Shown: positions 34,532 to 54,745, numbered from the stretch's first letter. The stretch: 64,000 nucleotides of DNA from Terrimicrobiaceae bacterium (GCA_044342325.1 JBIIPZ010000010.1:16540-80539); one strand, 5' to 3'. Translations and numbers: made by a program. The notes: generated by a model from the letters alone, not told the origin.

Positions 34532-35260
34532 GGCGGCGCAGGCGAGAAGCTGGGTTCGGGCGGTTTTGGAGCAGAGAGGAGCATCGCTCTCGCATGCCCC
34601 ATTTTTCAGCTGCGAAGCGGCGTCTCTGCTGGATGCGATGGCGGCCTTGCCGCGCAAATGGGTCAGCGGCGGCCTCCGGCTCGTAGCCTACGCCTCGGAG
34701 AGCGCGCCGACCCTACCCTAGATCTACGAGCGCGCTGCCGCGCGGGTCGTGCATCGTCCTCGCATGGCACATTTTTCAACCACGAATTGCACAATTTTTC
34801 ACGAATGGGGAGCGGCTTCGCCGGAGATTCTCCTTGCTGGTTTTATTCGTGTTCATTCGGTCTATTCGTGGTTCAAGGACATCCGGGCAGCAGGGGCGCA
34901 GCGCGGCGTTCGACCATCGAGGAGGTTCCGGCGCGCGGCGTGATGGGAACGAGGCGGCGTGGTGGCGAGCCATTCAGTCTTGGGTCAAGCCGGAGGTTGA
35001 CCCTCCAAGGGTTTGCGCGCGGCAGCGCGCTTCGTTATTCCGGGAGGGGCATCGTCCTCGCATGACCCATTCTTCAGCCGCGCTTCCTGCTCGTAGCGCA
35101 GCGCGCGGAGAGAAGCGGCGTTTCTTCTGGATACAATGGCGGCCTTGCCGCGCAAATGGGTCAGCGGCGGCCTCCGGCTCGTAGCCTACGCCTCGGAGAG
35201 CGCGCCGACCCTACCTTGGATGAACGAGGGCTCTCCGCGCAGGACCGCCTGGCGGAAATC
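34532..35260. repeat. Mosaic REP/REPIN-like spacer B
   Basis: Internal duplication (about 34638-34717 and 35136-35215), 96-bp palindrome 34778-34873, modules shared with the other spacers. Confidence 0.85.
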
Positions 35261-35261
35261 C

Positions 35262-36023
35262 TCACAGCGGCTTATGCGGCTCGGCAAGAGCTACTCCCTG
35301 AATCAGCAATTCATCGACCAGCATCTCGGCACTGAGGCCGGCGCGTGGTAAATAATATTCATTAGGGTGCGCTCCGAGAAATACATTCAATGTTTCAGGA
35401 GCCACGCCGTCCACTTGCTCATCAATGAGAACATTTCCGTTATCGCTGATTTTCAAGTTACTTCCATCTCCACCTGCATCGGTTTTTACCACCACGGCTA
35501 TGTGATGCCATTGCTCGTCGAGAAGATCGCTGGCTACGGATTTAGTGAACCACTTGGAGGTTCCCAACTTGAACATCGAATTTAATTTTCCGGCTTGGTC
35601 CACTTGGAGCCCAATGCATAGCGCTTTCTCATCCTGCCCGCCCGGGTTTAAGATGCAACCGATATGACCGGGCCCTGAAAGTTTGACCCAAAAGCTCACA
35701 GTGAATTCCGCCTCCGCCAACTTAATTCCAGAAGTGGATAAAGTATTCTCGGGTTTGAGGGAGAGTGCCTGCCCGAGATTGGAAGGGCCAGATGCAAAAA
35801 CGGGCTCAGCAGGCGAACGATTGGACCCGCTCTCCGTGGGGGTTTCCAGAGCGTCAAGTTTAAGACGCCCGCTATCGCCTTCGAGACTTCCATCAAAACT
35901 CCAATAACTGAGCGTATCCCCATTCGGCGTATTGGCGCGCGGCCAGGAGAATTCGGCATGAGAGACGCTGAGAGAGAGAAGCGAGGCAGCCAGTGTATTG
36001 AACAGCAGTTTGGTGGATTTCAT
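35262..36023 (-). CDS. Secreted LamG/concanavalin A-like jelly-roll protein
   Basis: Signal peptide; YWSFDG, FTVSFWVK, QWHHIAVV and VDELLI motifs. Confidence 0.8.
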   Translation of the reverse strand: MKSTKLLFNTLAASLLSLSVSHAEFSWPRANTPNGDTLSYWSFDGSLEGDSGRLKLDALETPTESGSNRSPAEPVFASGPSNLGQALSLKPENTLSTSGIKLAEAEFTVSFWVKLSGPGHIGCILNPGGQDEKALCIGLQVDQAGKLNSMFKLGTSKWFTKSVASDLLDEQWHHIAVVVKTDAGGDGSNLKISDNGNVLIDEQVDGVAPETLNVFLGAHPNEYYLPRAGLSAEMLVDELLIQGVALAEPHKPL

Positions 36024-36159
36024 AGGGTTTTTTGAGGGTTGCAGATTTAAGATTTTGAATTCTGATCTGAGCGTGTCAATAAAAACTTAAGGTTCAAAAT
36101 AAAAATCAATGTATTTTCAGTGGAGTCCGGCAAATGGGAATGCTCAGCTTGGGATGCTC

Positions 36160-36486
36160 GACAAAATCATGGATGGCAGAATCATTTTTTTGATGGAGCG
36201 GGCGCGCTGCCGCGCGATTGCTGAAGCGGCGTCTCTATGAGCGCCGAGGGGGGACTCCGATTCGGCAGTCATAGACAGCCGCTACAAACCCGCGCGGCAG
36301 AGCGCTATTCGTGTTCATTCGGGGTATTCGTGGTTCATGGACATCCGGGCAGGATGGGATTTGGGCGGCTTTTGAGCGGGGTGGTGTCCGGGAGTCATCC
36401 CGCGCCTTCCGTGGAGGAATTTGGGCCATGCCAACCGAAGCCACGGGCGTGGCGTAGGAAGCACATCGCAGATGGCCCGGAGGGCG
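36160..36486. repeat. Mosaic REP/REPIN-like spacer C
   Basis: AGCGGCGTCTCTATGAGCGCCG...CGGCAGTCATAGACAGCCGCTAC hairpin pair; 57 bp (36430-36486) identical to 45678-45734. Confidence 0.8.
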
Positions 36487-36511
36487 AATTGGTTTCGAAA
36501 ATAATCCACCT

Positions 36512-36550
36512 TTGACAACCGGGCTTCCATCGTAATACATTCGGTATGAC
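36512..36550 (+). promoter_or_regulatory. Sigma70-like promoter with overlapping inverted-repeat operator
   Basis: TTGACA 36512-36517, TACATT 36536-36541; GTAATAC-N5-GTATGAC abuts the ATG. Confidence 0.6.
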
Positions 36551-36775
36551 ATGAAGACCATCACGGCAAAAATCCCTGATGCCCTGAACGAGAAACTCAG
36601 GAAATCCGCCGCTCTGAAGAAGGAGCATTTTTCCGAAATCATCCGGCGTGCGTTGACGCGGGAGCTTGATGGCGATGTGGACTTCGCTGCCATGGCCGCA
36701 CCGTATTGCGGGATGTTCAGCGGTCCCTCGGACCTCTCCACGCGCGAGGGCTATGGAAGTCCGGACAATCGTTGA
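36551..36775 (+). CDS. Ribbon-helix-helix (CopG-like) antitoxin
   Basis: MKTITAKIPDALNEKLRK...SEIIRRAL and GPSDLST motifs; upstream of PIN gene. Confidence 0.82.
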   Translation: MKTITAKIPDALNEKLRKSAALKKEHFSEIIRRALTRELDGDVDFAAMAAPYCGMFSGPSDLSTREGYGSPDNR

Positions 36776-37166
36776 TGCCGGTCCGTTGATCGGTTGGCTC
36801 AATTCCACCGACCAATGGCACAGGTGGAGTGTGTCTGTTCTTCAAAAAGTCAAAGGCCCGATCCACACAAGCGAGGTTGTGCTTGGCGAAGCCTGTTGGA
36901 ATCTGGGAGGTAACACCAAGCCCGTTCACGCCTTGCTCAGCTTGGTTGGCAAGGGATCCATCCAGCTTTTGCGGCCTTGGCCCGAAAATCTCACCCGCAC
37001 GCAGGAACTGATGCTCAAGTATCCCACGATGGACGCCGGCGATGCCTCGATCGTTGTTCTGTCCGAACAGAATCCCAAGGCGCAAATCATCACCACAGAC
37101 CGCGCGGATTTTTCGATATACCGCCGCTTCCGCTCCCAAAAAATCCCCGCCATTTTTCCGAGGTAA
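36753..37166 (+). CDS. vapC: PIN-domain toxin
   Basis: IVDAGPL, DQWH, VLGE, MDAGDAS and TTDRADFSIYR acidic PIN motifs. Confidence 0.85.
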   Translation: MEVRTIVDAGPLIGWLNSTDQWHRWSVSVLQKVKGPIHTSEVVLGEACWNLGGNTKPVHALLSLVGKGSIQLLRPWPENLTRTQELMLKYPTMDAGDASIVVLSEQNPKAQIITTDRADFSIYRRFRSQKIPAIFPR

Positions 37167-37229
37167 CGAGAGTTTGCATTTGAGGGAATCAAGCCTGCCC
37201 TCACACGAAATATCTTTTACCGTAGTGCG

Positions 37230-37735
37230 GTCTCGTGCGGCACGAGGCCCATTTTTCAGCCGTGCTTCCGGCTCGTAGCGCAGCGCGCGGAGAGAAGCGG
37301 CGTAGATGCTGTAAGTGTCGTGGCATTCGCCTACGACACTTACACCAACCCCTCAAAAAACAACGGGGTGCTCGACGCAACGCTTACGTAGAGCCTACGG
37401 GTCGGAGAGAAGCGGCGTGCCAGGGGAGCATGACCGTCTCGGTCGTGTAGGCGCAAGGCGGGGTTCGCCCATCGATGAGGTTGCGGCGCGAGTGCCTTTC
37501 ACGCTCGAGACGAGCGTGCTCCCCTCTTTCGCGCTGCCGCGCGCTTCGTTACTTGGGAGGGTCGACCTCCGGCTTGACCCATTTTTCAGCCGCGCTTCCG
37601 GCTCGTAGCGCAGCGCGCGGAGAGAAGCGGCGTTTCTGCGGGAGTTGCTTTGCGCGTTTTGCGGGGTGGTGTCTGGGAGTCATTCAGCGCCTTCCGAGGA
37701 GGAATTTGGGTCAAGCCGGAGGTTGACCCTCCCGG
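37230..37735. repeat. Mosaic REP/REPIN-like spacer D
   Basis: Duplicated 37248-37303/37578-37633; inverted REP pair 37556-37581/37707-37732; 37469-37542 similar to 45496-45570. Confidence 0.85.
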
Positions 37736-40700
37736 GGTTTTCGATTGGCTCGGCGACGGAGGTATTGGACGGCGAGGCCTGCGAGGAGGGCGAGGGCGTA
37801 GAAGTAGGTTTCGGTTTCGGGGACGGCTATGATGAGGCTGCCATTACCTTCGAAGCCACTGACTTCAAATCCGTTGCCGATGAATCCACTGCCACTGCCG
37901 CTGTAGAAGCTGATTTTTGCGAGGTCGGAAGCCACGAGGGAATTATCGGTAAAGACAAGGTTGCTGGGGGTTAGATAATTGTTGACTGGATCACCGTAGC
38001 GCGGCACTCCGCTCCAGTTCCAGATGGCCAGGTTGGCGCTGGGCGCCCAGGAGCCTACGCCGCTGAAGCGAAGCGTGCCGACGAAGCCGGCAAAGTCGAT
38101 GATGGAATCCTTGCTCAGGGTGAGGAGTCCGACATTCTCGTTGAATGTTCCACTTACGGCCAGGGTGCCGCCATCGAGGTTGATATTTGTGCTGTCGCTG
38201 ACGGCGTTTGCGGCGGTGACGAGGAAGGAGCCGCCGGTGACATTGACTACTGTGGTGTTGCCCATGGCTCCGGTTGCGGCGGCTTGGAGCGTGCCGCTGT
38301 TGACCGTGGTGCTGCCGGTGAAGCCACTGTTGTCGCCAGTGAGGACTTGGGTGCTGGCGCCGTCTTTCACGAGGGCGGAGTTGGAGGCGCCTGTGATGCG
38401 GCCGGCGTAGGTGGTGCTGCCGCTTGTCGCGTTGATTGTGAGGGTATTGGCGCCGAGGGTGACATTTGAGCTGGCGGCGCCGGTGAGCGAGGCCACGGAT
38501 TGGCTGGCGCCGAGGGCGAGTGTGGAGCTGCCGGTGCCGGTGGTGTCGATCGAGATGGCGGATCGGCCGTTGGCTGTCGGCAGGGCGTTGGTGACATTGG
38601 CGTTCAGGGTGGCACCGTTGATGATGCTGGTTGGGCCGTTGTAGGTATTCGCGTTGGCGAGCGTGGTGGTGCCGCCGTCGATGACGAGGTCGGAGTTGGC
38701 AGAGGAGCCACTGATGACGCCGCTCACCGTGATGCCGTTGCTACCGCCTGCGAGGGTGAGTGTGGTGCCGTTTTTGCTGAGGGCGCCGGAGAGGGTGAGG
38801 AGGCCGGTGCCGCTGTTGCGGATGGTGCCGGTGCTGCCTGTGGCGCCGGTGATGGAGATGTCGCGGGTCAAGTTGCCTGCAGCGCCGTTGTAGATGAGTG
38901 CGGTGGCGTTGGCGAGGTTGACGCCGGAGGTGGAGCCGAGGGCTGAGACACTGCTGATCGAGAGGTTCCCGGCGCTGATGGTGGTGGCACCGCTGTAGGT
39001 GTTGCTGCCATTCAGGGTGAAGGTGCCACTGCCTGTTTTTATGAGGCCGTTGGTGCCGGCGAGGATTGCGCTGACCGTGCCGTTTTGCATGGCGTAGTTT
39101 CCACCGTTGTTGGTGATTGTGCCGTTGACCAGTGTGCCGCCGCTGATGCTGGTGATGGTGTTGGTGAGGCTCTTGCCGCCCATGTCCAGTGTGCCGCCGG
39201 TGAGGCTGATCGTGCTGGTGCCGAGCGTGCCGTTGCCGGAGAGGAGCAGCGTGCCATCCGCAACCACCGTGCTTCCGCTTAGGGTGTTATTTCTGGAAAG
39301 CGTGACGGTGCCACTGCCATTTTTGGTCAATGTGCCACTGCCGGCGAGGATGGTCGAGACAGAGCCGTTTTGGAGGATATAGCCGTCGGTTGCGGTGAGT
39401 GTTGACGTGAAAACTCCTCCAAGTTCAATGACATTTCCATTTGTAAGCGTGAGGAGAGAAATAGCGTTATCCCTATTTTGCATATCCAATGTGCCCCCGT
39501 TTATCGTCACGTTATTGGAAGCCGAGATGACATTGCCCTCACCTAAACGCAATGTTCCTGCATTGATCACGACGCCTCCCGTAAAGGAGTTTGACGCACT
39601 GTTAATTTGCATAGTCCCTGTGCCATTGAGCGTTATGCCACCGGATCCGCTAATGACTCCACTGAAAGCGAGAGTGCTGCTGGAATTCCAGAGAAGTGTG
39701 CCATTATTGGCGATATTTCCGGCCCCATTGAGAGTTCCTGAACCAGCGATCTCCAGAATTCCGGCTGAAATGGTCGTGCCACCGCTGTAGGAATTGCTGC
39801 CGGTGAGCCGGAGGGTGCCGGCGCCTGCTTTGGTGAGGGAGGAGGAGGCGCCGGAGATGACGCCGCCGACGGTGAGGTTGCCGCTGGTGAGGGTGATTGT
39901 GCGCGAGGCGGAGTTGCCGAGGGCGACTGTGCCGGTGCCGAGGTTGAGATCATTTGTGCCGGCGAAGGCGAAGTTGGCATTCCAGTTTTGGGTATTGTTG
40001 CTGGTAAGGGTGATACTGGTGCCGCTGGTGTTGTTGAGGGTGCCGCCGTTGATAGTGAGCGCGCCGGTGCCGATGGCGGTGGAGTTATTGAGCACCAGGG
40101 TGCCGCTGTTGAGCGTGGTGCCCCCGGAGTAGGTATTGGCGGAGGAGAGGGTGAGGTTGCCTGTGCCGCTCTGGGCCAGCGAACCACTGCCACCGATGGC
40201 TGTGGAGGTGAAATCCGTGCCTTGGGCGAGATTGTTCGAGCGGTTGAATGTGAGCACGCCGTTGTTTGTGATCGTGCTGCTGGTGGAGAGGGAGCCAGTG
40301 GTGCCTCCGTTGCCGATCTGGAGGCCGCCGGCGGTGATCGTGGTGGTGCCGGTGTAGGTGTTGCCGCCAGTGAGCGTGAGGGTGCCGGAGCCGGTTTTCA
40401 CAAGCGCGCCACCTGCGCCGCCCATGCTGCCGCTGAATGTGGTGCTGGTGTTGTCGCCGCCGACCGTGAGGGTTTTGTTGCCGAGGGCGATGGAGGATCC
40501 GCTGGCACCGGCGATGGAGGCGATCGTCTCGCCGGAGGCGGTGATGGCACTGATATCGAAGCTCGTGCCGCTGGCTGCGAGGTTCATGGTTTCACTGTCG
40601 GCAAGAGCGCCGGAGCCGCTGAGGGCGATGCCGCCGGCTGAGATGGTGATGCCGCCCGTGTGGGTGTTATTCGCAGTGAGCGTGAGGGTGCCAGCGCCTG

Positions 40701-43700
40701 TCTTGCTGAGGGCTCCGGTGGAGGAGAGCACGCCGGAGAGGGTGGTGTTGTTGGAATTGGTATCGAAGACGGTGGTGCCAGAGGAGAGGACGATGTTATT
40801 GGCCAGGGTGAGGCCGCTGGCGCCGCTGCGGAGGGTGGCTGTGTTGCCTGCGCCCGGATTGAGTTTGACCTCGCCGCTTGAGTTGCCGAGGGCGGTGCTG
40901 CTGCCGACGACGACGGTGCCGCTGCTGATGGTGGTGCCGCTAGCGTAAGAGTTGCTGCCGCCCAGGATGAGCGTGCCGTTGCCGGTTTTGGAGAGACCGG
41001 CGCCCGCTCCAGCAAGGTTGGCATTTATCGTAGTATTTCCTGTTGCAGAGACATTTATGGCAGAAGAGGAGGATGATGTCACATTAAGCGTATTGGAACC
41101 ATTGATCGACACTTCGGAGGTGGTAATGGCGAGCGTATTGATGCTGTAGTTGGCGCCAAGGGTGGTAGTGAGGTTGCCGGCATTGGTGCCCGCGAAAATG
41201 ACATCCGATTGATCGGTGAGGGAGCTTCCGGGGATTGAAGCGGTGCCGTTGATACTGGTGCTGAAGTTGGTATCCACCCAACTGCTGCCGTTCCCGCCGG
41301 TCCAGTAGGCCAGTGAGGAACTGGCCGCCGCCGTGAGCCAGAGGGAGGTGGTATTCGATGTGAGGCTGAAAGAATACCCTGTCTGAGGGGCGTAAGTGCC
41401 CAGGCTCCATGTGCCATTGAGACCACTGGTGGCAGTGAGGAGTGTCCAGTTTCCCCCGCTCGAAATGGAGTTGAGAAAGCTAAGGTTCACAATATTGGTG
41501 CCATTAAGAGTTGCTGCACCTCCAAAATTCAAGCGGTCCGACGCGCTGCTGCTCAGATCCACATCGAACGAAAGCTTGGCTGTGCTGAGTGAGATACCGG
41601 AGCTGCCGAGTGTGATCGTGCGCGTGTCGCCATCGGCAAAGCTGAGCGTGGAGCCACCTGAGGCGCTGAGGCCAGTGATATTCGAAGAAAGAGCGCCAGC
41701 GCCGCTGAAGAGGAGCGTGCCTGCGGTGGCTTCGACCGCGCCGGAGTTGGTGTTTGTGCCATTGAGGGTGGTGGTGCGTTCAGACGATTGCACGATATTG
41801 CCTGCGCCGCTGATGTTGTTTGAAATGGTTGCATCAGCGCTGCGGTTGAGTTGGAGTGCCGCTCCGGTGTTGACCGCTATGGCTCCCGCGACGGAGCCGG
41901 ATGCGACGGAGAGCGTGAGCGTGCCGCCATTAATAGTGGTGCCTCCCGTGTAGGAATTTGCGGCAGAGAGCGTGAGTGTGCCGGTGCCGTTTTTGGTGAG
42001 GCCACCGGTATTCGAGCTATCCATCGCGCCGGCGAAGGTCGCCGATTGGCCGTTGGTATCGAGAATCATGGCGGAGGCGCTGTTTTTGATGCGGGCGCCG
42101 TAGTCGGCTCCCGAGCCGCCAGAGGCGAACTGCATGGTGCCGCCGGAGAAGGTGATGTTGCCAGTGGTGCCGAGGGCGGCGGTGGCGTTGATGCCGAGGA
42201 TGCCGGCCGAGAGAGTCGTGCCGCCGGTGTAGGTGTTTGTGCCGGAGAGCGTCCATGTGCCGGTGCCGGCTTTGACGAGCGCGGTGGTAGCTGTATTTGC
42301 GGCAAAATCATTGATCACTCCCGACAGCTCACCGGTGCCGCTCGTGGAGCCCTGGAGAGTGAGGGTTTTGTTGCCATTGCCTGTGGCTACGACAGCACTC
42401 GTAAACCGCAGCGTGCTGTTGCCAGATTGATCGATCACGGCGCCGCCGGTCGTGCCCGAAAGGTTGATGGTGCGGTTGGTCGTCTGAGCCGCACCAGTGT
42501 AGAGAAGCGTGCCAGAGCTATCCCTCAATCCGATGTTGATGGCAGAGCCGCTGCCTACGGCACTGTTTACGGTGCGGTTCCCGATCGAGGCCACGCTGAG
42601 CGTGCCGGCTGCGATGGTGGTGTTGCCACTGTAGCTGTTCGACCCATTGCCGAGCGTGAGCGTGTTGTTGCCGAGCTTGGTGAGCGCGCGTGTTGTGCTG
42701 AGGGTCGGATTGAGTGTAAAACTCCCAGCCGTGGTATCTACCGCCACGCCAGAGATATTATTAAGACTAAACCAACCCGCAAAAGTGCCAGTTCCATTTG
42801 TGGTTGACGCATTGAAAAGCGTCGCGACATCGTTCTCACTGTAGTCGCCAGATGCCGCGCCCACACCGAGGCCTACGGTGACGCCTGCGGAAATAGTGAC
42901 ATTGCTGCTCGTGGGGCGCGCGGCAGTATTTCTGAAAACGAGCGTGCCACCGCCAACGATCGTGGCACCGGTGTAGGTATTGTTTCCAGAGAGCGTCCAT
43001 ATGCCAGTTCCGGACTTGGCGACCCAGGTGAGATTTGTTCCATTGTTACCGATCGAGCCCGCAATCTCGCCCATACCGGTGCCAGAGAGTGTGAAGACTT
43101 TTGATGATTCGAATCTGGATGTGACATTGCTTGTGAACCGCAGCGTGCCGCTGGAGTTGTCGGCAAAAATATTGGCCCCCGGTCCCCCGGCAACCGTGAT
43201 GTTTTTATCCGTTGTCTCTCCTGTGCCGGTATATAAAAGAGTGCCAGGAGTGTGCGTAGAACCAATAATTATGGAACCATTAGTGCCCAGATAGCTATTT
43301 GAGCCCGCATTTCCGATGCCGGCCACGCTCAAAGTGCCACTCTGGATCGTGACAGCTCCCGTGAAGCTGCTATTTGAGTTTCCGAGAACAAGAGTGCCGC
43401 CTGCGGCAGACATGCCGAAGAGTAAAGCATTCGTGCCATTTGCAGTTAATGCGCTATTGATCGTAAAGGAATTGAGTGATGCCGCGGCCAGACGGTAAGT
43501 TTGGCCACTGCCAATCACAATGCGCGAGGACACATCGGTGGAGTTGTTTGTGAAAACCAAGCCACCGCCTGTCATATTAATGTTGCCACTATAACCCATG
43601 GCTCCCGCACTTGATAATTGAGCGTAAGGGCTAGTAACGCGCCACGATGAAGCGGAGTTGTTTCCTGAAAGTGTGAGAAACGGATGTGACGAACCCAAAG

Positions 43701-44856
43701 ACACACTGCCATTGACGGCGAGATTTCCGGTTAGAGTTATTGATTTTGAGCTTGTTCCTTGCAAAGTCAAGGCCGAGGTTGCTCCAGCGAGGGATGAGAT
43801 GTCGCCACTGAAGGTGGAGGAATTTGAGGAGAGAGAGATCGTCTGGCTCCCATTTCCGAGAAAGATTCTGTTTGATATGGTGGTTACATCTGACCGGTTG
43901 ACGATAAGCGTGCCGGAATTGATCGTGATATTACTGCTGGCCGAGATGCTGCCCGTCGCGCCATTATTACCAAGTTGCAGCGTGCCGGCGTTGATGGTAG
44001 TGGCTCCGGTGTAGGTGCTGGCACCAGTGAGGATCAGGCTGTTGGATCCTGTCTTGGTGAGGCCCAGAGCGCCCTGTGCGGTGTTGCCGAGGTTCGCCGT
44101 GTAGGTGCGGCTTGCCGTGGTGGTATCAAAGCCGATTGCTGAATCGGCCGCAAAATTCGTCGTGCCGAGCATGGTGGTGATGTTTGCATCCGTTACGGCA
44201 TTGTAAACGGCGAGAGAAGCCCCGCCGGCTACGGAGTATCCGCCATTTGTGCTCCACGAAGGCAGAGCGGAGGTGCTGGTAATGGAAAGCACACCCGCGC
44301 TAACCGTGGTGCCACCGCTATAGGTATTCGCGCCGGAGAGAACAAGCGTGCCGGTGCCTTCCTTAGTGAGACCGAAATTAGTGCCGGTGATGATGCCGCC
44401 GACCGTGAGGGCGTTTGTTGAGTTGTTGCTCCAAGTTTGGTTCGCAGCGAGAGCGAATATTGCGCTCCCTGTGCTTACCGCGCCAGCTCCGGCAGCAACC
44501 TCAATACCCATATTCACACCGCCAGTGGAAACACCGCTCAGCGTGATCGTATTTGAGCCGCTCCCAAAAGTGAGAGCCCCGCTGCTGGAACCAATGTATA
44601 GTTTTCCGAAAGCCGCATTGGCTGTAGCGCTAGGCGCATTTGTGTATGTGGCATTATTAAAATTGCCGGTGAATGTGGCACTGGGTGTCGTGTTAGGGGT
44701 CCAGCTTGTATTTGTCCCAATTGCTGTTGAGCTATTGTTCCAATCGGCCGATGTCTGCGCCCGCGCATCAGGCACGAACGCCACGCCCGCCGCGAGTGCG
44801 AGCAACACCGCGATACGAATCCGGATGCGGGATGAGAGTGGTGAGTGTGTATTCAT
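37711..44856 (-). CDS. Large autotransporter-associated beta-strand-repeat surface protein with PEP-CTERM-like sorting tail
   Basis: Start reassigned to MNTHSP (signal peptide ending ARA-Q); many LTKxGxGTLxLxGxNTYxGxTxIxxGxL repeats; C-terminus VPETETY + hydrophobic helix + LRRR; no beta-barrel. Confidence 0.88.
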   Translation of the reverse strand: MNTHSPLSSRIRIRIAVLLALAAGVAFVPDARAQTSADWNNSSTAIGTNTSWTPNTTPSATFTGNFNNATYTNAPSATANAAFGKLYIGSSSGALTFGSGSNTITLSGVSTGGVNMGIEVAAGAGAVSTGSAIFALAANQTWSNNSTNALTVGGIITGTNFGLTKEGTGTLVLSGANTYSGGTTVSAGVLSITSTSALPSWSTNGGYSVAGGASLAVYNAVTDANITTMLGTTNFAADSAIGFDTTTASRTYTANLGNTAQGALGLTKTGSNSLILTGASTYTGATTINAGTLQLGNNGATGSISASSNITINSGTLIVNRSDVTTISNRIFLGNGSQTISLSSNSSTFSGDISSLAGATSALTLQGTSSKSITLTGNLAVNGSVSLGSSHPFLTLSGNNSASSWRVTSPYAQLSSAGAMGYSGNINMTGGGLVFTNNSTDVSSRIVIGSGQTYRLAAASLNSFTINSALTANGTNALLFGMSAAGGTLVLGNSNSSFTGAVTIQSGTLSVAGIGNAGSNSYLGTNGSIIIGSTHTPGTLLYTGTGETTDKNITVAGGPGANIFADNSSGTLRFTSNVTSRFESSKVFTLSGTGMGEIAGSIGNNGTNLTWVAKSGTGIWTLSGNNTYTGATIVGGGTLVFRNTAARPTSSNVTISAGVTVGLGVGAASGDYSENDVATLFNASTTNGTGTFAGWFSLNNISGVAVDTTAGSFTLNPTLSTTRALTKLGNNTLTLGNGSNSYSGNTTIAAGTLSVASIGNRTVNSAVGSGSAINIGLRDSSGTLLYTGAAQTTNRTINLSGTTGGAVIDQSGNSTLRFTSAVVATGNGNKTLTLQGSTSGTGELSGVINDFAANTATTALVKAGTGTWTLSGTNTYTGGTTLSAGILGINATAALGTTGNITFSGGTMQFASGGSGADYGARIKNSASAMILDTNGQSATFAGAMDSSNTGGLTKNGTGTLTLSAANSYTGGTTINGGTLTLSVASGSVAGAIAVNTGAALQLNRSADATISNNISGAGNIVQSSERTTTLNGTNTNSGAVEATAGTLLFSGAGALSSNITGLSASGGSTLSFADGDTRTITLGSSGISLSTAKLSFDVDLSSSASDRLNFGGAATLNGTNIVNLSFLNSISSGGNWTLLTATSGLNGTWSLGTYAPQTGYSFSLTSNTTSLWLTAAASSSLAYWTGGNGSSWVDTNFSTSINGTASIPGSSLTDQSDVIFAGTNAGNLTTTLGANYSINTLAITTSEVSINGSNTLNVTSSSSSAINVSATGNTTINANLAGAGAGLSKTGNGTLILGGSNSYASGTTISSGTVVVGSSTALGNSSGEVKLNPGAGNTATLRSGASGLTLANNIVLSSGTTVFDTNSNNTTLSGVLSSTGALSKTGAGTLTLTANNTHTGGITISAGGIALSGSGALADSETMNLAASGTSFDISAITASGETIASIAGASGSSIALGNKTLTVGGDNTSTTFSGSMGGAGGALVKTGSGTLTLTGGNTYTGTTTITAGGLQIGNGGTTGSLSTSSTITNNGVLTFNRSNNLAQGTDFTSTAIGGSGSLAQSGTGNLTLSSANTYSGGTTLNSGTLVLNNSTAIGTGALTINGGTLNNTSGTSITLTSNNTQNWNANFAFAGTNDLNLGTGTVALGNSASRTITLTSGNLTVGGVISGASSSLTKAGAGTLRLTGSNSYSGGTTISAGILEIAGSGTLNGAGNIANNGTLLWNSSSTLAFSGVISGSGGITLNGTGTMQINSASNSFTGGVVINAGTLRLGEGNVISASNNVTINGGTLDMQNRDNAISLLTLTNGNVIELGGVFTSTLTATDGYILQNGSVSTILAGSGTLTKNGSGTVTLSRNNTLSGSTVVADGTLLLSGNGTLGTSTISLTGGTLDMGGKSLTNTITSISGGTLVNGTITNNGGNYAMQNGTVSAILAGTNGLIKTGSGTFTLNGSNTYSGATTISAGNLSISSVSALGSTSGVNLANATALIYNGAAGNLTRDISITGATGSTGTIRNSGTGLLTLSGALSKNGTTLTLAGGSNGITVSGVISGSSANSDLVIDGGTTTLANANTYNGPTSIINGATLNANVTNALPTANGRSAISIDTTGTGSSTLALGASQSVASLTGAASSNVTLGANTLTINATSGSTTYAGRITGASNSALVKDGASTQVLTGDNSGFTGSTTVNSGTLQAAATGAMGNTTVVNVTGGSFLVTAANAVSDSTNINLDGGTLAVSGTFNENVGLLTLSKDSIIDFAGFVGTLRFSGVGSWAPSANLAIWNWSGVPRYGDPVNNYLTPSNLVFTDNSLVASDLAKISFYSGSGSGFIGNGFEVSGFEGNGSLIIAVPETETYFYALALLAGLAVQYLRRRANRKPREGQPPA

Positions 44857-45261
44857 AGGGAGGCAGGAGCTGGTATGGGTGGGATGGGATTCGGAATGAA
44901 AGTCGGAAATCCACGGGACGAAAGCGCCAAGGCGGCCACGCTGGGAATCCCTACCCCGCCCGCAAAGCGGCTCAGCGAGGCCCGTGACGAGGCGATGGGT
45001 GTTTGTGGAAGGGAGAAATTTCATTGGGAGAAACTTTATTATTTATTTTTATAAACAAAGCAGAACATTTGATTGACCGCAACCGAAAGTCAAATTTTTT
45101 TTAAAGTTTTTCTTTCCAAACAGTCGATAGCCACAAAAATTTTTGCATAGTAATTTTTTTCAAGGACTTAAAAAAATCATTTCTCTTTATACAAAAAGGG
45201 TTATTCCGCCAGTAGAGAGCTACAGGATCGCTTAATCATGAAAAATCCGCGCCGCGAAGGT

Positions 45262-45810
45262 TCAACAGAATGATGGATGACAGAATCATTTTTTAGGGGT
45301 GTGGCGCGCTGCCGCGCGAGTCCTGTAGCGGCGTCTCTTAATCCCATGGTAGGGATGTCGCGCCGTCGACGTCCCAAGTTTCAGCTGCGAAGCAGCGTTT
45401 CTGCTGGAGATGCAATGGCGGCCTTGCCGCGCAAATGGGTCAGCGGCGGCGCGCCGACCCTACCCTTTGATGCACGAGCGCACGGCGTGGCTTGACCATC
45501 GATGAGGTTGCGGCGCGAGTGTCTTACACGGTCGAGACGACCGTGCTCCTCTCTTTCGCGCTGCCGCGCGAGTCCTGTAGCGGCGTCTCTATGAGCGCCG
45601 GGTGCGGATAGGGCGGTTTTTGGGCGAGCAGGTGTCTGGGAGTCATTCAACGGCTTCCGTGGAGAAATTCTGGTCAAGCCAACCGAAGCCACGGGCGTGG
45701 CGTAGGAAGCACATCGCAGATGGCCCGGAGGGCGCAGCGAGCAGGGCGCGAGCAAGGCAAAGGTCGCCCTCCAAGGGCTTGAGCGCGACAGGGACCGGGC
45801 GGGCGCTCGC
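45262..45810. repeat. Mosaic REP/REPIN-like spacer E, carrying the uninterrupted hairpin alleles
   Basis: GTAG-initiated hairpins at about 45325, 45349 and 45577; 45380-45463 equals spacer B modules without the 30-bp inserts. Confidence 0.85.
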
Positions 45811-46943: not shown

Positions 46944-46954
46944 GAATGAAGAAT

Positions 46955-48152: not shown

Positions 48153-48356
48153 TTATATTAGTCTTTTCTGTAGAAAGATGTGACTTGTTAGTTAGAAGGC
48201 TCCCGGCCATGCGCGGTAGACTCGGCCGAGGTAAGACAAGCGAACCTGATTTCCATCGCCAGCAACACAAGGGCACTCGATAACCATGAATTTTATTTTT
48301 TTAAATAATGTTTTTCTTGAAGGGGTGATCATGCTTGGTTATGTTGGTTTTTTCCA

Positions 48357-48956: not shown

Positions 48957-48962
48957 TGCACG

Positions 48963-49457: not shown

Positions 49458-50382
49458 AAGGGGCGCCTTCAGTTTGATTGAAATGCTGGTGGCCGTGGCC
49501 GTGTTTGCCATTTTACTCACGATTCTTGCCGGCTCCTACAGCGGCATTGAAAGAGCCATTTCCCAGACCAATGCCCGCCGCGAAGCCAATGCCACCGGCC
49601 GCGCCGCCCTGGAGTGGATAACCCGCGATCTCGAGCGCATCCGCCCGCCTGCCCCGGGCTTCATCTGGAGTGTCACCAGAAACACCAATACAAACCGGCC
49701 CGTCGCCACCCTCGGCTCCCAGTTCCTCATCGCCTCAAACCAGATCACCACCAACAAAAACCCCCATGCCGCCTTCTGGCAGGTGGCAAACGAGGAAGGC
49801 GCGGGACGCACAATGGCCATCGTCGGCTACTTCGTGCGCTGGATCACCGAGACCAACAACAGCATCCCCACGACGCGCCCCGTCCTCTGCCGCCTCTACA
49901 TAAACCAGACGAACGCCGCCTATCCATCGGGCCTCAATAGCGCCAACGGCACATGGCTCGACGACAACCTCCTCACCAACGCCCCCGGCAACGCGCCCTC
50001 CTACAGAGGCTGGTTCGCCGACAATATCCACTCCATCTGGTTCCGCGCCCTCGATGCAAACGGCGCCCCCATCTCCACCAACGCCTCGTCCAACGCCTTC
50101 TCCGCTGGATCCTTCGACTCCCGCCAAGGCTACCTCTCCGGCACCAACCGCATCATGGGCCCCGCCCTCCCCTCCTCTGTGGAAGTCGCCGTGATCGTGA
50201 TGAACCCCCAACGCCTCCAGGGAAACACCGACACCTACCCTGTGCTCTCGGGACTCGGCTCAAACCCTGCCAATTTCTGGAGCGATATCCAATCCGCCAT
50301 GAATGACACATCCATCCCGCCGCAGATTCGCGAATCCCTGCGCCTCTACTCCACACGCGTCCCAATCTCATATGCCAAATAA
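49450..50382 (+). CDS. Verru_Chthon cassette protein C-like pseudopilin
   Basis: GA-FSLIEMLVAVAVF, ITRDLE, HAAFWQ, VGYFVRW, FADNI, FDSR and LPSSVEV motifs. Confidence 0.78.
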   Translation: MNKRGAFSLIEMLVAVAVFAILLTILAGSYSGIERAISQTNARREANATGRAALEWITRDLERIRPPAPGFIWSVTRNTNTNRPVATLGSQFLIASNQITTNKNPHAAFWQVANEEGAGRTMAIVGYFVRWITETNNSIPTTRPVLCRLYINQTNAAYPSGLNSANGTWLDDNLLTNAPGNAPSYRGWFADNIHSIWFRALDANGAPISTNASSNAFSAGSFDSRQGYLSGTNRIMGPALPSSVEVAVIVMNPQRLQGNTDTYPVLSGLGSNPANFWSDIQSAMNDTSIPPQIRESLRLYSTRVPISYAK

Positions 50383-53300
50383 CCCCGAAGCCCGACCACC
50401 TTCGGCCGCCGCACCGCGACGGCCCACCTTGGCCTCCCGAGCCAGCGCCTTGCTGGTCACCCTCCTGCTTTTAACCATCGTCACCACGATTGTCGTTCTG
50501 ATGTTCCAAGCCGTCACGATCGACCGCCGACTGGCTGCGGATTTTCAAAAAGGCGTCCAAGCCCGCGCGATCTCGCAATTCGCCCTCGATGACGCCCTGC
50601 AGACACTCCAGAGCGCGCTGAACAACCTCGACGACCCCTTCGGCGCCACCACCGCAGCCACCAACTTCTGGGCCGTCGCCCCCGGCCGCATCGACCTCTT
50701 CTCCCTCGCCAGCGGTAGCTCACGGCCGCAGCGCACCGCCACCATCCCCCTCCACTCCGGCTACGACACCTCCAAGGAACTCGTGGACTTAAACTTCACC
50801 AACGCCTCCGGAAGCCGCGCCATCTGGCCAGGCGGCCTAGACATGCCGGTCAATTGGAAACCTGTTCTCAAAAACCCCTCCTCTGCCGCCAGTGCCACCA
50901 ACCCCATCGTCGGCCGCTATGCCTTCTGGGTCGATGACGAGAGCAGCAAGGTAAACATCAACACCGCCGACGGCACCGAACTCTACACCACCAACAGCTA
51001 CGGCGTCGGCACCCCCTCCTCCGTCCGCCTTCGTGCCATCCTCAGCACCCTCGGCACAAACGACATCAAGGCCATCTCCGCCGAAGCAATCAGCAACCAG
51101 TTCAGCGACCTCTCCGAAGTCGGCCGTCTCAATACAAACTACCTCGCCGCCGTCCGCTCCAACGCCTTCTTCCTCACCGAGTATTCCCGCAGCCCAGAGT
51201 TCAATATCTTCAACGAACCCAGGTTCCAACTCGCCAGCATGTGGGGGGGTAACAGAGCCTCCAATGGCATTACCGGCACCGGCACTGTGGGAACTCCTAC
51301 CAATTTTATCCCGGCATCCCCCCATAACCGGCTCCCCCTTGATTTCCGGCTATCCGCCTATTCCAACACTACGACTCTTGACGCCCAAAACTTTCCCGCA
51401 CGCTCGATCTACCCGACCCCGCTCCAGCTCACCAACACAAACCGCAGCAGCTTCTGGCCATATCTGCCAGCGCTCAACTGCGATACGCCTGCCTCAAGCG
51501 AACCAGGACGAAAGAGCGGCAGCCTCGCATCCCTGGCACAGATCACGAACGCAGTGGGTGCAACCAACAATTACGCGCTTCGCAGTTACAACAGCCAAGA
51601 GCGGTTTGCAGCGGCCCGGCGCTTAGCACTCTATCTGGTCGGGACCAATGCAAACATGCAACCAATAACCTGGCCCTTCGCAGACGCAAATTACTCAACT
51701 ACGAAATATGCACTTAGCCAGATCGACTCGATCATAGTCCAAGCCTTGGACAGGGTGAATCTCGCGGTTTACAATCAAACTCACTTTGCCGCGCCTCCCC
51801 TATTGGCTCCCTATGGCATTTTGGGCACCAACCCCGTAATCGGCCAAGGGAATTTCCCAAAACTCTGCGAGATGCTGTTCGAGTTCAATTGGGGGCGGAA
51901 AAGGTCGAACATTCCAGTCATAACAGGTAATTCGACTAATTGGATAACAGTCGATCCCGACGGATCACGCCTGACGGCGAAGCTCTGGCAGAAAGGCTTT
52001 GTCCCGGCCCACTACCTCAACCCGGTTGCCATCTCAACAAACACGCTAGTTCCCATGTCGGGGACTACGATCAACGGACTGCGTAAAAATTATGGGCCCT
52101 TGCTTCAATCATTCGACGTCGTGCCTTGGAATTATACTGTCGATCGAACTAACTTCAGCTTTTCCACAAATAACTTTCCGTCTAACACGCTCAACGGCTA
52201 CCCCGGCGGAGCCAGCTACTACGCCAGCCCATGGGTAACGGATAGTGCGATTTCCACTAATATCACCAACCCCTACATGAGTTATTGGGGCGACAACCTA
52301 CTACAGGCCGTCGATCAAAATGGTCTCTGCGCAGGCATTGATTTCCACCTGCACCCGTCCCAGTTGACTGATCCCGATCCGAGGAAGGCCATCTTCCGCA
52401 GAGAGGGAAAAGGCAGTTTTACACCTCCTAGCGGCAATACTAACTGGGGCGGCTCGGTCTGGGCCCAAGGAGGCAACGACGGAGGCTATTCGCTCCCAGC
52501 CGGAACGCTCGATTTCGGGAGCGCAGTAACCTTTCAGCAGCCGGGCTCCTACTCGGTCGTCAAGAACTATGGCCACCAATGGGCCCTCCCCTCGCGGGAT
52601 TTTTACAGCACCAATTTCATTGGAGGCGTTCCGCAGCCCCTGATTTCCAGTGGGCCTGCCGCCAGCACAGCCTATACGAACAAGGTCACCAGCTTCACAC
52701 TGCGCGGCGGCATCAATTACCGGGTCAACAGGAATGCCCTCGAAGGAATTTTGGAGATCGTGCCGCTCACCTCGCTCCAGGGGCCGGCCGGATGGTCGAC
52801 AAACTGCATGTTCAGCACGGCAATGCCCGACACAAACGCCGTCATCCCCTTCCCCTCCGGAGTCACCGTTAGCTCCACCACTCCGACGATGTATGTCTGG
52901 GCTTCTGTGGCCGATCCCCTGGTCAATAAATTTCCTGGCGACTGGACGGTCACAGCGAGCACCAATATTCCCGCCCACACAATGGGAACCCTCGGCAATT
53001 CCTGGGATCCCGGTCTCGGCTGGTATTACCCCTTGAATACGCCGAATGCCAGTTCCACCGATATGGCAGCCACTTGGGGCCCGATATCAACGATCCTGAG
53101 GTCAATATCAAGTGTGCCAAATAAGATGACTCTTTCGGCGAACACAATCACCAATACCATCTGCCCCACGCTCAACCTCCCCTCGGTCGGCTCGCTCCAA
53201 TACATCCGCACGAAGATGATTCCGCCCGATGATGCTGGAAACACCAACCGCGGCCAGCCCTTCCGCTGCCTTAGTTTTGCCGGAGCATCCGACGCCACCC

Positions 53301-54034
53301 AGAGCGGCATCCCGGATTGGGCGATGTTGGATCTGATGACCGTTCCGCAAGCCATCTACGACAAACCAGGCAACATCATGTTAAGCGGAGCCAGCAATGT
53401 CATTAACCTCACCTACGGTGGCGCCACCACCGGCAAGCTCAACCCGAACGGCAGCGCCCTCTTCCCCTGGGTCACTAATAGCGCAACCTACATCCGCCCC
53501 CAGCCCCTCACAGCCGTCTTCACCGACCTGCGCTACAATCTGGACGGCTCGACGAATTTCACGCCGCTAGCGACGAACCTCGCCTCCACGCTCGCCTCAA
53601 ATGTCGCCACCTACATCGCCGCCAACGGCCCCCTCTCCATGGCCGGCCAGATCTGCGACATCCCAGCCATCAATGCTTACGGAGCAGCCACCGTCAACCC
53701 CACACGCAACGACATCGTCAGCCAATCCATCGGACTTCTCGAAACGCGCAGCAGCGTCTTCTCCGTATGGGTCGCCGCACAAAGCATCGCAAAAAGACCT
53801 GCGAACACCGGCTATGGCGGCTTCGAACCGGGCGACTCCGTCCAGTCTGAGAAACGCTACCGCTTCACCGTGGAACGCTTCCTCGACCTCGGTGTGGACG
53901 GCGTCCCCGGCAACGCGAACTCCCCCGGCCCCGACAATGTTGTGGGAACATTGGATGACACAGTCGATGCCGTCTACAACCCACCCAACCCCAAATACAA
54001 ATACCGAATCATCAATGCACAAGAAATCCTCTAA
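50372..54034 (+). CDS. Verru_Chthon cassette protein A-like large PilX/GspK-type protein
   Basis: ALLVTLLLL signal lacking E5; NFWAVAPG, GRYAFWVDDESSKVNINTA, PDWAMLDL, GKLNPN, TRSSVFSV and VERFLD motifs. Confidence 0.8.
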   Translation: MPNNPEARPPSAAAPRRPTLASRASALLVTLLLLTIVTTIVVLMFQAVTIDRRLAADFQKGVQARAISQFALDDALQTLQSALNNLDDPFGATTAATNFWAVAPGRIDLFSLASGSSRPQRTATIPLHSGYDTSKELVDLNFTNASGSRAIWPGGLDMPVNWKPVLKNPSSAASATNPIVGRYAFWVDDESSKVNINTADGTELYTTNSYGVGTPSSVRLRAILSTLGTNDIKAISAEAISNQFSDLSEVGRLNTNYLAAVRSNAFFLTEYSRSPEFNIFNEPRFQLASMWGGNRASNGITGTGTVGTPTNFIPASPHNRLPLDFRLSAYSNTTTLDAQNFPARSIYPTPLQLTNTNRSSFWPYLPALNCDTPASSEPGRKSGSLASLAQITNAVGATNNYALRSYNSQERFAAARRLALYLVGTNANMQPITWPFADANYSTTKYALSQIDSIIVQALDRVNLAVYNQTHFAAPPLLAPYGILGTNPVIGQGNFPKLCEMLFEFNWGRKRSNIPVITGNSTNWITVDPDGSRLTAKLWQKGFVPAHYLNPVAISTNTLVPMSGTTINGLRKNYGPLLQSFDVVPWNYTVDRTNFSFSTNNFPSNTLNGYPGGASYYASPWVTDSAISTNITNPYMSYWGDNLLQAVDQNGLCAGIDFHLHPSQLTDPDPRKAIFRREGKGSFTPPSGNTNWGGSVWAQGGNDGGYSLPAGTLDFGSAVTFQQPGSYSVVKNYGHQWALPSRDFYSTNFIGGVPQPLISSGPAASTAYTNKVTSFTLRGGINYRVNRNALEGILEIVPLTSLQGPAGWSTNCMFSTAMPDTNAVIPFPSGVTVSSTTPTMYVWASVADPLVNKFPGDWTVTASTNIPAHTMGTLGNSWDPGLGWYYPLNTPNASSTDMAATWGPISTILRSISSVPNKMTLSANTITNTICPTLNLPSVGSLQYIRTKMIPPDDAGNTNRGQPFRCLSFAGASDATQSGIPDWAMLDLMTVPQAIYDKPGNIMLSGASNVINLTYGGATTGKLNPNGSALFPWVTNSATYIRPQPLTAVFTDLRYNLDGSTNFTPLATNLASTLASNVATYIAANGPLSMAGQICDIPAINAYGAATVNPTRNDIVSQSIGLLETRSSVFSVWVAAQSIAKRPANTGYGGFEPGDSVQSEKRYRFTVERFLDLGVDGVPGNANSPGPDNVVGTLDDTVDAVYNPPNPKYKYRIINAQEIL

Positions 54035-54626
54035 TCCGCTCCAGCATATATTTCTCCTTACGACCGCCTGCCTACTGGCTTTATCAGGCGCTGGCCTCTC
54101 TCAGGAACCGCCGCCCTCGAAGGCGCAATCCCCGCAGCATCCCGTTCGGATCGCGACCGATTGCGCGGGCATCGTGGCCTCCATCTGGGAGATCAGCCGT
54201 TTATCTGAGAACCGCCTGCTCATCGATTGCGGCTTTGACAATCTCTCAGCAAAGCCCGCATTCCTGGCTGCCAACATTCGCAAAGTAAAACAGCCAGGCA
54301 TCGACGGAGGACCCTCAACCGAAGGGTCGGAATTCGAACCCTACAACATCTCGGCTGGCGCGATCCTCACCGATGAGCGAACGGGGCTCACCTACAAAGC
54401 CTTCCCCAGCGGCCCAGCCTCCTCCGGCTTTGGGTTTCGCCCCGGAGATGGCACCGCCTTCAGCGTCACCTTCCCCGCCCCTCCCCCACCTCCTCCACCA
54501 GAAAAACCCGATGCCAAACCAGAAAAGCAGACCGTCAGCATCAGACTTCCCCAAGTCAAAGAACCCTTCCGCAACATCGTCATCCCGCAAAACGAAGGCG
54601 AAGTCATCAAATTCCACCCCAACTAA
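54015..54626 (+). CDS. Secreted hypothetical protein with polyproline linker
   Basis: Overlaps the end of the cassette A gene; hydrophobic N-terminus; FPAPPPPPPPEK. Confidence 0.6.
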   Translation: MHKKSSNPLQHIFLLTTACLLALSGAGLSQEPPPSKAQSPQHPVRIATDCAGIVASIWEISRLSENRLLIDCGFDNLSAKPAFLAANIRKVKQPGIDGGPSTEGSEFEPYNISAGAILTDERTGLTYKAFPSGPASSGFGFRPGDGTAFSVTFPAPPPPPPPEKPDAKPEKQTVSIRLPQVKEPFRNIVIPQNEGEVIKFHPN

Positions 54627-54745
54627 CCCGCGCGGCAGCGCGCTTCGAAAACCTGGGAGGGGCATCGTCCTCGCATGTCCCAAACTTCAGCCGCCCTCCA
54701 GCTCATAGAGCATACGGGTCGGAGAGAGGCGGCGTTTCTGCTGTT
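54627..54745. repeat. Mosaic REP-like spacer G
   Basis: Matches 35016-35125 and carries a 32-bp variant of the mini-insert. Confidence 0.8.

Follow-up and report, generated by a model that had tools for sequence, protein, structure and literature searches.

The 64-kb stretch of DNA analysed here (referred to as the window) belongs to the assembly of a Terrimicrobiaceae bacterium (genome G000; contig C78, positions 16540-80539; assembly of 2.93 Mb in 78 contigs, 56.5% G+C, 86% completeness) and contains several copies of a hairpin-forming module that is inserted into unrelated host repeats, some of which also stand empty in the same window. The module is a discrete unit: Filled and empty hosts were found in two genomes, it is joined 3' of a G without duplication of the target, its subtypes are uniform within a genome, its decay and expansion proceed by whole units, and it is nearly identical in metagenome-assembled genomes (MAGs) of different phyla. 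We consider it about as likely as not that these 30-33 nt constitute a minute, non-autonomous mobile element of the kind of repetitive extragenic palindromic (REP) sequences and small dispersed repeats (SDRs), for which no mover was found among the enzyme families surveyed. The letter-for-letter spread across phyla and the fact that no partner enzyme was found are what is new here.

The module has the consensus C(C/T)TCCNGCTC(G/A)TAG...CGGAGAG and a length of 30-32 nt in the window (30-33 nt over all genomes). Its core pattern, GCTCRTAG-N8-12-CGGAGAG, matched the window six times, always on the plus strand, and was absent from each of 100 dinucleotide-preserving shuffles. The two principal hosts are hairpin 1, GGTCAGCGGCGG|CGCGCCGACCCTAC, and hairpin 2, TTCAGCYGYG|AAGCRGCG. 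An earlier note on this DNA had located inserts, empty hairpins and a partial copy, and all of these positions proved correct on re-inspection; the copies and empty host sites are as follows (window coordinates).

34673..34702, plus strand: 30-nt module copy of the CCTACGCCT subtype, occupying the loop of host hairpin 1, which on the minus strand reads as a REP with a GTAG tag
35083..35112, plus strand: 30-nt module copy of the CGCAGCGCG subtype with one base changed, occupying the loop of host hairpin 2
35171..35200, plus strand: module copy with the same sequence as the 34673 copy, in host hairpin 1
37265..37294, plus strand: module copy, CGCAGCGCG subtype, in host hairpin 2; poor DNA fold, degenerate-looking
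37383..37409, plus strand: partial copy in which only a remnant of unit 1 precedes the second 16-nt unit (37394-37409); the 3' arm of hairpin 2 comes next
37595..37624, plus strand: module copy with the same sequence as the 37265 copy, in host hairpin 2
54695..54726, plus strand: module copy of 32 nt, CATACGGGT subtype, in host hairpin 2; poor DNA fold
45438..45463, plus strand: empty host hairpin 1, insertion point between 45449 and 45450
34605..34622, plus strand: empty host hairpin 2 with a GAAG-type loop
45380..45397, plus strand: empty host hairpin 2
37500..37519, plus strand: empty host hairpin 3 with the 3-nt loop AGA (filled copies at C3:10822, C19:48591 and C19:45893)
45527..45546, plus strand: empty host hairpin 3
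45730..45760, plus strand: empty host 5, a short direct-repeat context without hairpin (insertion after 45745 elsewhere)

Filled and empty copies of hairpins 1 and 2 differ by exactly 30 nt, the boundary sliding by one G, and no target duplication is required to derive the filled from the empty sites (precise in hosts 1, 2 and 5); the insertion without target duplication that the earlier note had claimed is borne out. Hairpin 2 and the hairpin 1 that comes after it make up a composite repeat, which is present in the window in three of its four possible fill states (empty/filled at 34587-34716, filled/filled at 35060-35214, empty/empty at 45375-45465). The two hairpins have therefore gained or lost the module independently of each other.

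The module is built of two quasi-repeats of about 16 nt, CCTCCGGCTCGTAGAG and CCTACGNNTCGGAGAG, which are the same at 13 of 16 positions. Where they differ, unit 1 has T and unit 2 has A, and these bases are complementary partners, so that the two units fold into one imperfect hairpin: an outer stem of 5 bp, a variable 3x3 internal loop, an inner stem of 5 bp (CGTAG/CTACG) and a loop of 0-3 nt. Both units start with CC|T, the unit junction reads GAGCC|TACG, and GTAG is present on both strands of the module. The predicted DNA fold is of modest stability (-5.8 to -7.1 kcal/mol; z = -1.1 to -1.7) and similar for both strands; placed in its host, the module forms a coaxial extension of the stem, the folding energy of host 1 being -8.4 kcal/mol when empty and -14.6 kcal/mol when filled. 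The CGCAGCGCG subtype of the window and the 54695 copy are poor folders and look decayed. Forms consisting of one unit occupy the same host sites (C70:34424, C70:34570, C3:74415, C50:680 and window position 37394), and a deletion between direct repeats of 3-5 nt could yield each of them from a two-unit copy; at locus L093 the second unit is repeated three times in tandem.

Among 58 distinct variants, seven belong to a sister type (GCCCGTAGGGCC...CCGGAGGG) that forms a nearly perfect 14-bp hairpin; relative to it, the two units of the common type are altered at corresponding positions (C to T and G to A), which leaves G-T pairs on the plus strand. Both units of one copy carry matching type-specific substitutions (7 C-type, about 50 T-type and 1 mixed row in alignment A1). 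The arms are conserved across phyla, 9 of 32 columns being invariant and a further 9 nearly invariant, and over the 58 variants 78.4% of cells are paired in the long hairpin versus 72.5% in an alternative fold of two small hairpins.

In the whole of genome G000, the strict pattern was found 14 times. A profile search yielded 38 matches at E <= 10, of which 28 were accepted by eye (19 two-unit copies, 5 copies of a divergent variant of the CTTCCTGCTCGGAGAG + CTATACAGCTCGGAGAG type, and 4 fragments); one more one-unit copy exists beyond these. The search of genome and relatives that the earlier note had proposed was thus carried out, with about 28 copies in G000 (fragments included) and matches in 12 of 24 congeners. 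At least five unrelated hosts were distinguished in G000, and empty forms were found for four of the five. Host 1 occurs four times empty and three times filled when matched by a strict regular expression, outside of which lie one further filled and one one-unit copy; host 2 is represented by 41 empty, 9 filled and 3 one-unit copies, host 3 (CACGGTCG-loop-CGACCGTGC) by 10 empty and 3 filled copies, and host 4 by a single filled copy at C4:2859. Host 5, empty in the window with the insertion point at 45745/45746, is filled by the divergent variant in five G000 paralogues and in contigs of run X3. The insertion also extends to a third level: At C19:45893-45965, host hairpin 3 contains the module, and the variable middle of this module contains a related 31-nt hairpin that carries GTGG/CCAC where the module has GTAG/CTAC. 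This nested hairpin occurs once in G000 and is missing from the paralogue at C19:48591, 2.7 kb away.

An independent series was found in a distant verrucomicrobial genome (G043), where a different REP hairpin, GGACGGCTGG(G/C)CCAGCCGTCC, is present in 59 empty copies. Of 15 modules retrieved from G043, at least 8 lie precisely at the apex of this hairpin, which in its filled form has a folding energy of -21 kcal/mol (z = -4.9). Both host hairpin 1 and this REP end in CCTAC on the plus strand of the module and are therefore GTAG-tagged REPs read on the other strand, with the module in the same sense in both. The plus strand of the module is the strand on which the 3' arm of the host REP precedes CCTAC in host 1, in five of eight filled G043 REPs and at loci L114, L229, L222 and L227.

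The target was surveyed over 188 modules, which reduce to 148 distinct flank contexts across genomes. The base preceding the module is G in 139 of the 148 contexts and the one before that is G in 123, whereas the following base varies (A 70, C 42, G 23, T 13). A perfect stem of at least 5 bp within 4 nt of the insert is formed by the flanks of 27 contexts, compared with a mean of 5.2 and a maximum of 11 in 200 flank shuffles; hairpin tips are thus about five-fold enriched and favoured, but they constitute a minority of sites, the other 121 contexts being of other kinds. The targeting of hairpin loops proposed in the earlier note consequently holds as a preference, the general rule being insertion just after a G, usually after GG. 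Short direct repeats in the flanks were about twice as frequent as expected (26 versus a mean of 12.6, maximum 22), because copies lie between the units of short tandem repeats. In genome G042, one identical 31-mer occupies at least five unrelated contexts. Modules between tandem-repeat units of 7-8 nt were seen at the Desulfobacterota-labelled loci L033, L040, L056, L058, L092, L102 and L112; these units end in TGG (AATNCTGG or ATACTGG types) and the arrays recur in those genomes.

The two host contexts recognised from the window alone are accordingly to be replaced by at least five unrelated hosts in G000 and 148 contexts across genomes; the module is a separate unit rather than the variable part of one ancestral long repeat. 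A motif confined to two hosts, with ragged ends and derived from a single long ancestor, which the earlier note had named as the outcome that would overturn its interpretation, is not what was found.

Of the 24 other species of the genus, 12 carry the strict pattern, the copy number ranging from 0 to 20 over the genus; 16 genomes representing 15 further families of the order had no match (reversed-pattern control in the genus and order set: 0-1 per genome). In species-representative genomes, a 20-base version of the pattern matched at least 119 loci, and inspection by eye of the matches listed distinguished 107 hairpin modules from 12 coding look-alikes (mostly of Microbacteriaceae). Among the 80 of these listed matches that bear a title, about 60 come from MAGs labelled as Desulfobacterota, Deltaproteobacteria or Thermodesulfobacteriota, 6 from Verrucomicrobiota, 2 from Nitrospinaceae, and 1 each from Planctomycetota, Chloroflexota, Bacteroidota and Nanoarchaeia. 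Five genomes were counted in full: two labelled as Desulfobacterota with 107 and 51 copies, one other member of the Verrucomicrobiota with 23, one of the Nitrospinaceae with 12 and one of the Planctomycetota with 3 copies (reversed-pattern control: 0 in each). One subtype dominates in each genome, as illustrated by 49 identical copies out of 51 in G042, 9 out of 11 in the congener G016, and 89 among the 100 matches listed for G041. Of five matches in viral contigs, three were true modules; among records of cultured origin, no match was obtained in 72,556 plasmid and 50,697 phage records. A gene neighbouring the module is present in 20 lake or freshwater DNA runs from 14 studies, with no RNA run among the holders listed. 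At four loci (L207 and L218 of the Nitrospinaceae-labelled G044, L029 of a delta-proteobacterial MAG, and L187 of G042), the module lies in a longer common context (..AGCCCGCCCTGG, then the module, then YGCGA..TCGTT.ATATAT.GATC..) that is conserved between MAGs of different phylum labels; this context is either a larger element moving the module between lineages or the product of mis-binned contigs.

With respect to known repeats, the nearest kinds are the REP doublets forming hairpins (REPINs) and the SDRs of cyanobacteria. According to PMC3116915 and PMC3333891, the module has in common with REPs and REPINs that these are short (20-40 nt), imperfect, highly repeated, intergenic and non-autonomous palindromes that are thought to move as folded single strands. 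The module also carries GTAG/CTAC and CC|T motifs of the kind required and cut by the transposase TnpA-REP, and the doublet as replicative unit, clustering and tandem duplication are common to both. For TnpA-REP of Escherichia coli, PMC3333891 states that only single-stranded DNA is a substrate, that an imperfect hairpin with an adjoining GTAG is needed, and that cleavage takes place at C|T, also inside CTAC (CC|TAC). This likeness is one of possible mode of action and is not evidence that a REP-associated tyrosine transposase (RAYT) acts on the module. Of four REP/RAYT features compared, the module has only the first, namely that of a short imperfect palindrome that is highly repeated (3 to 107 copies per genome) and mainly intergenic. 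The unpaired terminal GTAG/CGTC tag is missing (GTAG/CTAC is internal and forms the inner stem, and the ends are CCTCC... and ...GGAGAG), no RAYT gene flanked by the module was found, and lineage specificity is contradicted by near-identical modules in MAGs of Verrucomicrobiota, Desulfobacterota, Nitrospinaceae and Planctomycetota. Furthermore, the stems of the module are only 5 + 5 bp long, unlike those of REPs and REPINs.

As for the cyanobacterial SDRs, which Elhai et al. described in 2008 (Genome Res 18:1484) from heterocyst-forming species, these are reportedly hairpin repeats of 21-27 nt with mobile-like insertions, nesting in each other and in other repeats, and no known enzyme; they are said to be confined to this one cyanobacterial group and to differ from the module in sequence. 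The module differs by its occurrence in several phyla and its two-unit build. SDRs are reportedly also polymorphic at orthologous sites; for the module, nesting is seen in G000, and no such polymorphism was found in the relatives and contigs compared.

The pattern of a hairpin within a hairpin is documented for GTAG- and CGTC-tagged REPs in palindromes by Di Nocera et al. (2013; PMC3733652), where it is mentioned in passing and explicitly left unexplored. The cases given there include REP units or dimers inside small palindromes (with hundreds of empty target palindromes for the GTAG-23 REP of Thermomicrobium roseum), long self-complementary loop variants of up to 27 bp in Bradyrhizobium, and REP dimers 1-2 bp apart in the verrucomicrobium Opitutus terrae, as well as GTGG tag variants; the inserts described in that paper are species-specific REPs, unlike the cross-phylum module. 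Neither GCTCGTAG nor CGGAGAG nor their reverse complements occur in any of four supplementary files of PMC3733652 (the consensus sequences of its Figure 1 were not compared), and a 15-mer of the module had no match in the literature searched.

Elements of the IS200/IS605 family are usually longer than 100 nt, and they carry a pair of distinct subterminal hairpins as well as tetranucleotides that define the cleavage sites on the left and on the right. Like their miniature derivatives, the module is inserted 3' of a short target without duplication (the G at position -1); an IS200-type TnpA with matching element ends was not found, given that G002 and G023, which have the best matches, contain no module and that the three modules of G041 that are close to a Y1 match do not lie at element ends. 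Single-strand intermediates and hairpins near the ends, as in the comparison with IS608 in PMC3116915 and PMC3333891, are also proposed for the module. Miniature inverted-repeat transposable elements (MITEs) combine terminal inverted repeats, target duplication and a related insertion sequence; the module shows no duplication, and no transposase is recurrent beside its copies. To our knowledge, it is smaller than any MITE.

Four enzyme families were considered as movers and rejected. Of the 24 genus relatives, 22 encode Y1_Tnp (RAYT/IS200 type), as do 14 of the 16 genera that were tallied for the order; being nearly universal, the family does not discriminate module-bearing genomes (12 of 24); the best IS200-type matches (E about 1e-38) are those of G002 and G023 mentioned above. 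Three of 18 Y1 matches in G041 are less than 500 bp from a module (about 0.6 expected), the module residing in its usual composite repeat in all three cases. G000 has three Y1 genes, of which the RAYT-type one (C9:58623-58883) is flanked by a different GTAG REP. A HUH/Y1 (RAYT) mover, as favoured in the earlier note, is consequently not supported by co-occurrence, since the module does not track Y1 in the genus and is present in the Y1-less G043. Reverse transcriptase (RT; RVT_1) was detected in 8 of 24 genus relatives with a mean of 6.1 modules, versus 0.75 in the 16 others; it was rejected since it is missing from module-bearing genomes (G043 and G021) and the RT of G000 is an ordinary group II intron enzyme, with the module outside the intron. 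The YhgA-like Transposase_31, of which G000 has 5 copies, is also encoded in 10 of 24 genus relatives and in 1 of the 16 genomes from other families of the order. In the genus it goes with host hairpin 2, and it is absent from the five module-rich genomes of other lineages; DUF559 was ruled out by its absence from G042-G044. On the contig of the window itself, no match to a Y1, RT or YhgA-type gene was obtained, in agreement with the earlier statement that no cognate enzyme is encoded here.

Some of these genes are accompanied by repeats of their own. The RAYT-type gene of G000 lies inside arrays of a GTAG-tagged REP (GTAGCGGCGGTCTATGACCGCC type) at C9:58200-59300. These arrays are so dense that, when translated from stop to stop, the frame preceding the gene yields a repeated peptide from them; the window arrays (33633-33660, 45320-45335 and 45575-45605) contain REPs of this type as well. 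The Transposase_31 genes of G000 are located at C40:109342-110304, C46:35565-36572, C50:93570-94622, C50:1-450 and C3:74690-75922, and all five open reading frames (ORFs) have a hairpin-2-type repeat, in some cases filled, within 75-270 bp. It is thus with host hairpin 2, rather than with the module, that the gene is associated. In three of them, a hairpin-2 repeat pointing away from the gene and then a conserved tail, CCCTCCACCAGATTTT, are found 170-210 nt upstream of the start; host hairpin 2 may thus be an end or a derivative of the element bearing Transposase_31. The group II intron of G000 (C3, about 72455-74390, minus strand; locus L230, about 2955-4890) contains a 406-aa ORF with RVT_1 and GIIM maturase domains, with the Rfam family Intron_gpII (domain V/VI) just downstream of the ORF. 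It starts (GTGCG) right after the hairpin GGGTCAAGCCGGAGGTTGCCCC, a dispersed repeat of G000 that is also present at 34980 and 37706 of the window. Resembling introns exist in G001, G024 and G014; the C3 intron looks like a hairpin-targeting (class C-like) intron with the GGGTCAAGCCGGAGGTTGCCCC repeat as its landing site.

If the module is a mobile element, it would be copied or moved as a folded single strand that lands in transiently single-stranded DNA, e.g. in hairpin loops or slipped repeats. This would involve a trans-acting, sequence-recognising enzyme, most probably a single-strand cleaving and joining enzyme of HUH/RAYT type or one that is still unrecognised. New lineages might be reached by hitch-hiking on transferred DNA, and the host repeats would then amplify the filled copies. 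Cutting and rejoining at the CC|T and GAGCC|TACG sites would yield exactly the observed forms that consist of unit 2 only. A more far-reaching version, which we regard as possible yet doubtful, is that of a cosmopolitan selfish hairpin of about 32 nt that crosses phyla on phage or transferred DNA, inserts 3' of G in any transiently single-stranded DNA by means of an unrecognised trans-acting enzyme or a universal host function, and thereby builds hairpin-in-hairpin REP mosaics.

Several observations weigh against a self-moving module. No gain or loss was seen at any orthologous site in genus relatives, public contigs or metagenome contigs; this comparison was unproductive because the genus relatives are too diverged or not syntenic. 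The closest of them (G024; mazF 93% identity) lacks the entire composite repeat and not the module alone, and although G016 and G055 possess orthologues of the gene that follows the 54695 copy, synteny is missing upstream of them. For the 37265 site, a site-specific pattern retrieved nothing from metagenome contigs. Logan contigs of four runs break at every repeat, so that no module site is bridged in public contigs; the contig ends at 37594 and 35081, which run on into the empty form, may stem from paralogous repeats and were not used as evidence. The clean ends described in the earlier note are confirmed in hosts 1, 2 and 5, but the inserts in host 3 bring 2-3 additional bases, (G/A)CG, so the insert ends are not always clean. 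In host 2, the module subtype co-varies with the host subtype, and many copies in G041 and G043 have long flanks in common; much of the copy number may therefore reflect amplification of filled host repeats. Covariation was not above shuffles over the 58 variants, neither for the long hairpin nor for the two small hairpins, and the hairpin thus rests on conserved sequence rather than on compensatory change. With regard to orientation, neither comparison is informative: 13 of 18 copies lie on the G-rich strand according to GC skew, or 6 of 10 contigs, and in G042 14 copies are in the same sense as the upstream ORF and 15 in the opposite one, as judged by a crude ORF caller that is confounded by spurious repeat ORFs. 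The phylum labels were taken from the titles of MAG records and are hence soft, and the matches in Chloroflexota, Bacteroidota and Nanoarchaeia are single short contigs that may be binning errors. The enzyme survey points in the same direction: G043, with 23 modules, has neither a Y1 match at E <= 0.001 nor an RT match (the latter being missing also from G021 with 5 modules), Transposase_31/YhgA-like genes were not found in the module-bearing G041-G045, DUF559 was absent or merely a domain of large proteins, and no transposase is recurrent among ORFs at up to 1.5 kb from modules, where only ordinary families (deacetylase, GGDEF, FAD oxidase) recur in different genomes.

Some of these points would be expected if the module were an alternative long loop of REP or bacterial interspersed mosaic element (BIME)-type repeats without transposition of its own, an explanation that we consider unlikely. 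Such a loop would have arisen once or a few times per lineage, multiplied only with its host and passed between hairpin tips by gene conversion or template switching, slippage by units giving rise to the partial and expanded forms. It would accommodate the co-variation of subtypes, the common flanks, the ragged ends in host 3 and the failure to find a dedicated enzyme, as well as the one-unit forms derivable by short deletions and the locus with a threefold second unit; REP families with alternative short and long self-complementary loops and REPs in palindromes with hundreds of empty copies are on record in PMC3733652. It is contradicted by the 148 flank contexts, most of which are not hairpin tips, by the identical 31-mer in unrelated contexts within G042, and by the near-identity across phyla with nothing in common in the host repeats, which conversion between homologous repeats cannot explain since the hosts in different phyla are unrelated; the strict G before the insert suggests a defined joining rule. 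The conservation of both arms across phyla might, on the other hand, be the result of selection rather than of recent spread if the module were a functional site, either for binding of a protein or as an RNA hairpin (stabiliser or processing signal). This we hold to be very unlikely. The G-T(U) wobbles kept on the plus strand would fit an RNA (at pair 7-27, 47 rows have G-U and 8 have G-C; at pair 9-25, 37 rows have U-G and 5 have C-G), and according to PMC3733652 REPs are often proposed as RNA elements; the missing covariation, the modest folding energy with both strands alike and the even split of orientations in G042 do not. Likewise, the copy number of 0 to 20 among congeneric species and the common degenerate copies look like neutral decay, and Rfam 15 gave no family at gathering score in the window, none on the module at E <= 5 (window 34300-37900) and none at E <= 0.01 at 14 module loci from other genomes.

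The two-unit build, the 16-nt periodicity and the tandem extra units could also point to filler DNA, i.e. units of about 16 nt synthesised from a short template by RT or repair synthesis and ligated at breaks ending in G, such as cleaved hairpin tips. The matching type-specific substitutions of both units and the prevailing G at the 3' end ahead of the insert would agree with this, as would the richer module content of RT-positive congeners, an association that is confounded by relatedness and by general mobile-DNA load. However, units 1 and 2 differ at fixed complementary positions, unlike the result of repeated copying of one template, G043 and G021 have no RT match, and the RT of G000 is an intron enzyme with the module outside its intron; we judge filler DNA to be highly improbable. 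That the true matches all derive from MAGs or uncultured viral contigs, with none in cultured plasmid or phage records, raises the question of an adapter or assembly error, the probability of which we take to be almost negligible: The module was found in short-read and long-read assemblies of many studies (according to record titles), internal to contigs of up to 380 kb, with lineage-specific subtypes, with decayed, partial and nested copies, and with host contexts that are conserved across congeners.

Further features of the window adjoin the module copies. A MazE/MazF (PemK) toxin-antitoxin pair (33958-34526) lies in the middle of a 1.7-kb intergenic repeat array and is flanked on both sides by a 197-nt repeat (33653-33849 and 34739-34935; 90% identity). 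A PIN-domain ORF of 166 aa (36666-37166), overlapped by an antisense ORF without Pfam match, is situated just upstream of the 37265 module; this region is possibly a toxin-antitoxin remnant among repeats. On the minus strand, positions 37711-45024 contain a 2437-aa ORF with 16 PATR (passenger-associated transport) repeats, which resembles an autotransporter-like giant surface protein; its many internal joints in public contigs of related strains fit a repetitive, variable gene.

Mobile DNA is usually traced by way of the enzyme that it encodes or borrows, and REPs are regarded as lineage-specific passengers of RAYTs; the module does not fit this scheme and is perhaps one member of a wider, undescribed class of cross-phylum mini-hairpins. 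In practical terms, such inserts break short-read assemblies and create spurious ORFs. If the module does not move by itself, it still explains the build-up of mosaic, nested repeat arrays. If, as in the mobile-element reading, it is self-moving, it would mark a lower size limit for mobile DNA and hint at an unrecognised single-strand joining activity, and it would be a simple, naturally occurring marker for following the horizontal passage of DNA among phyla of the environment.

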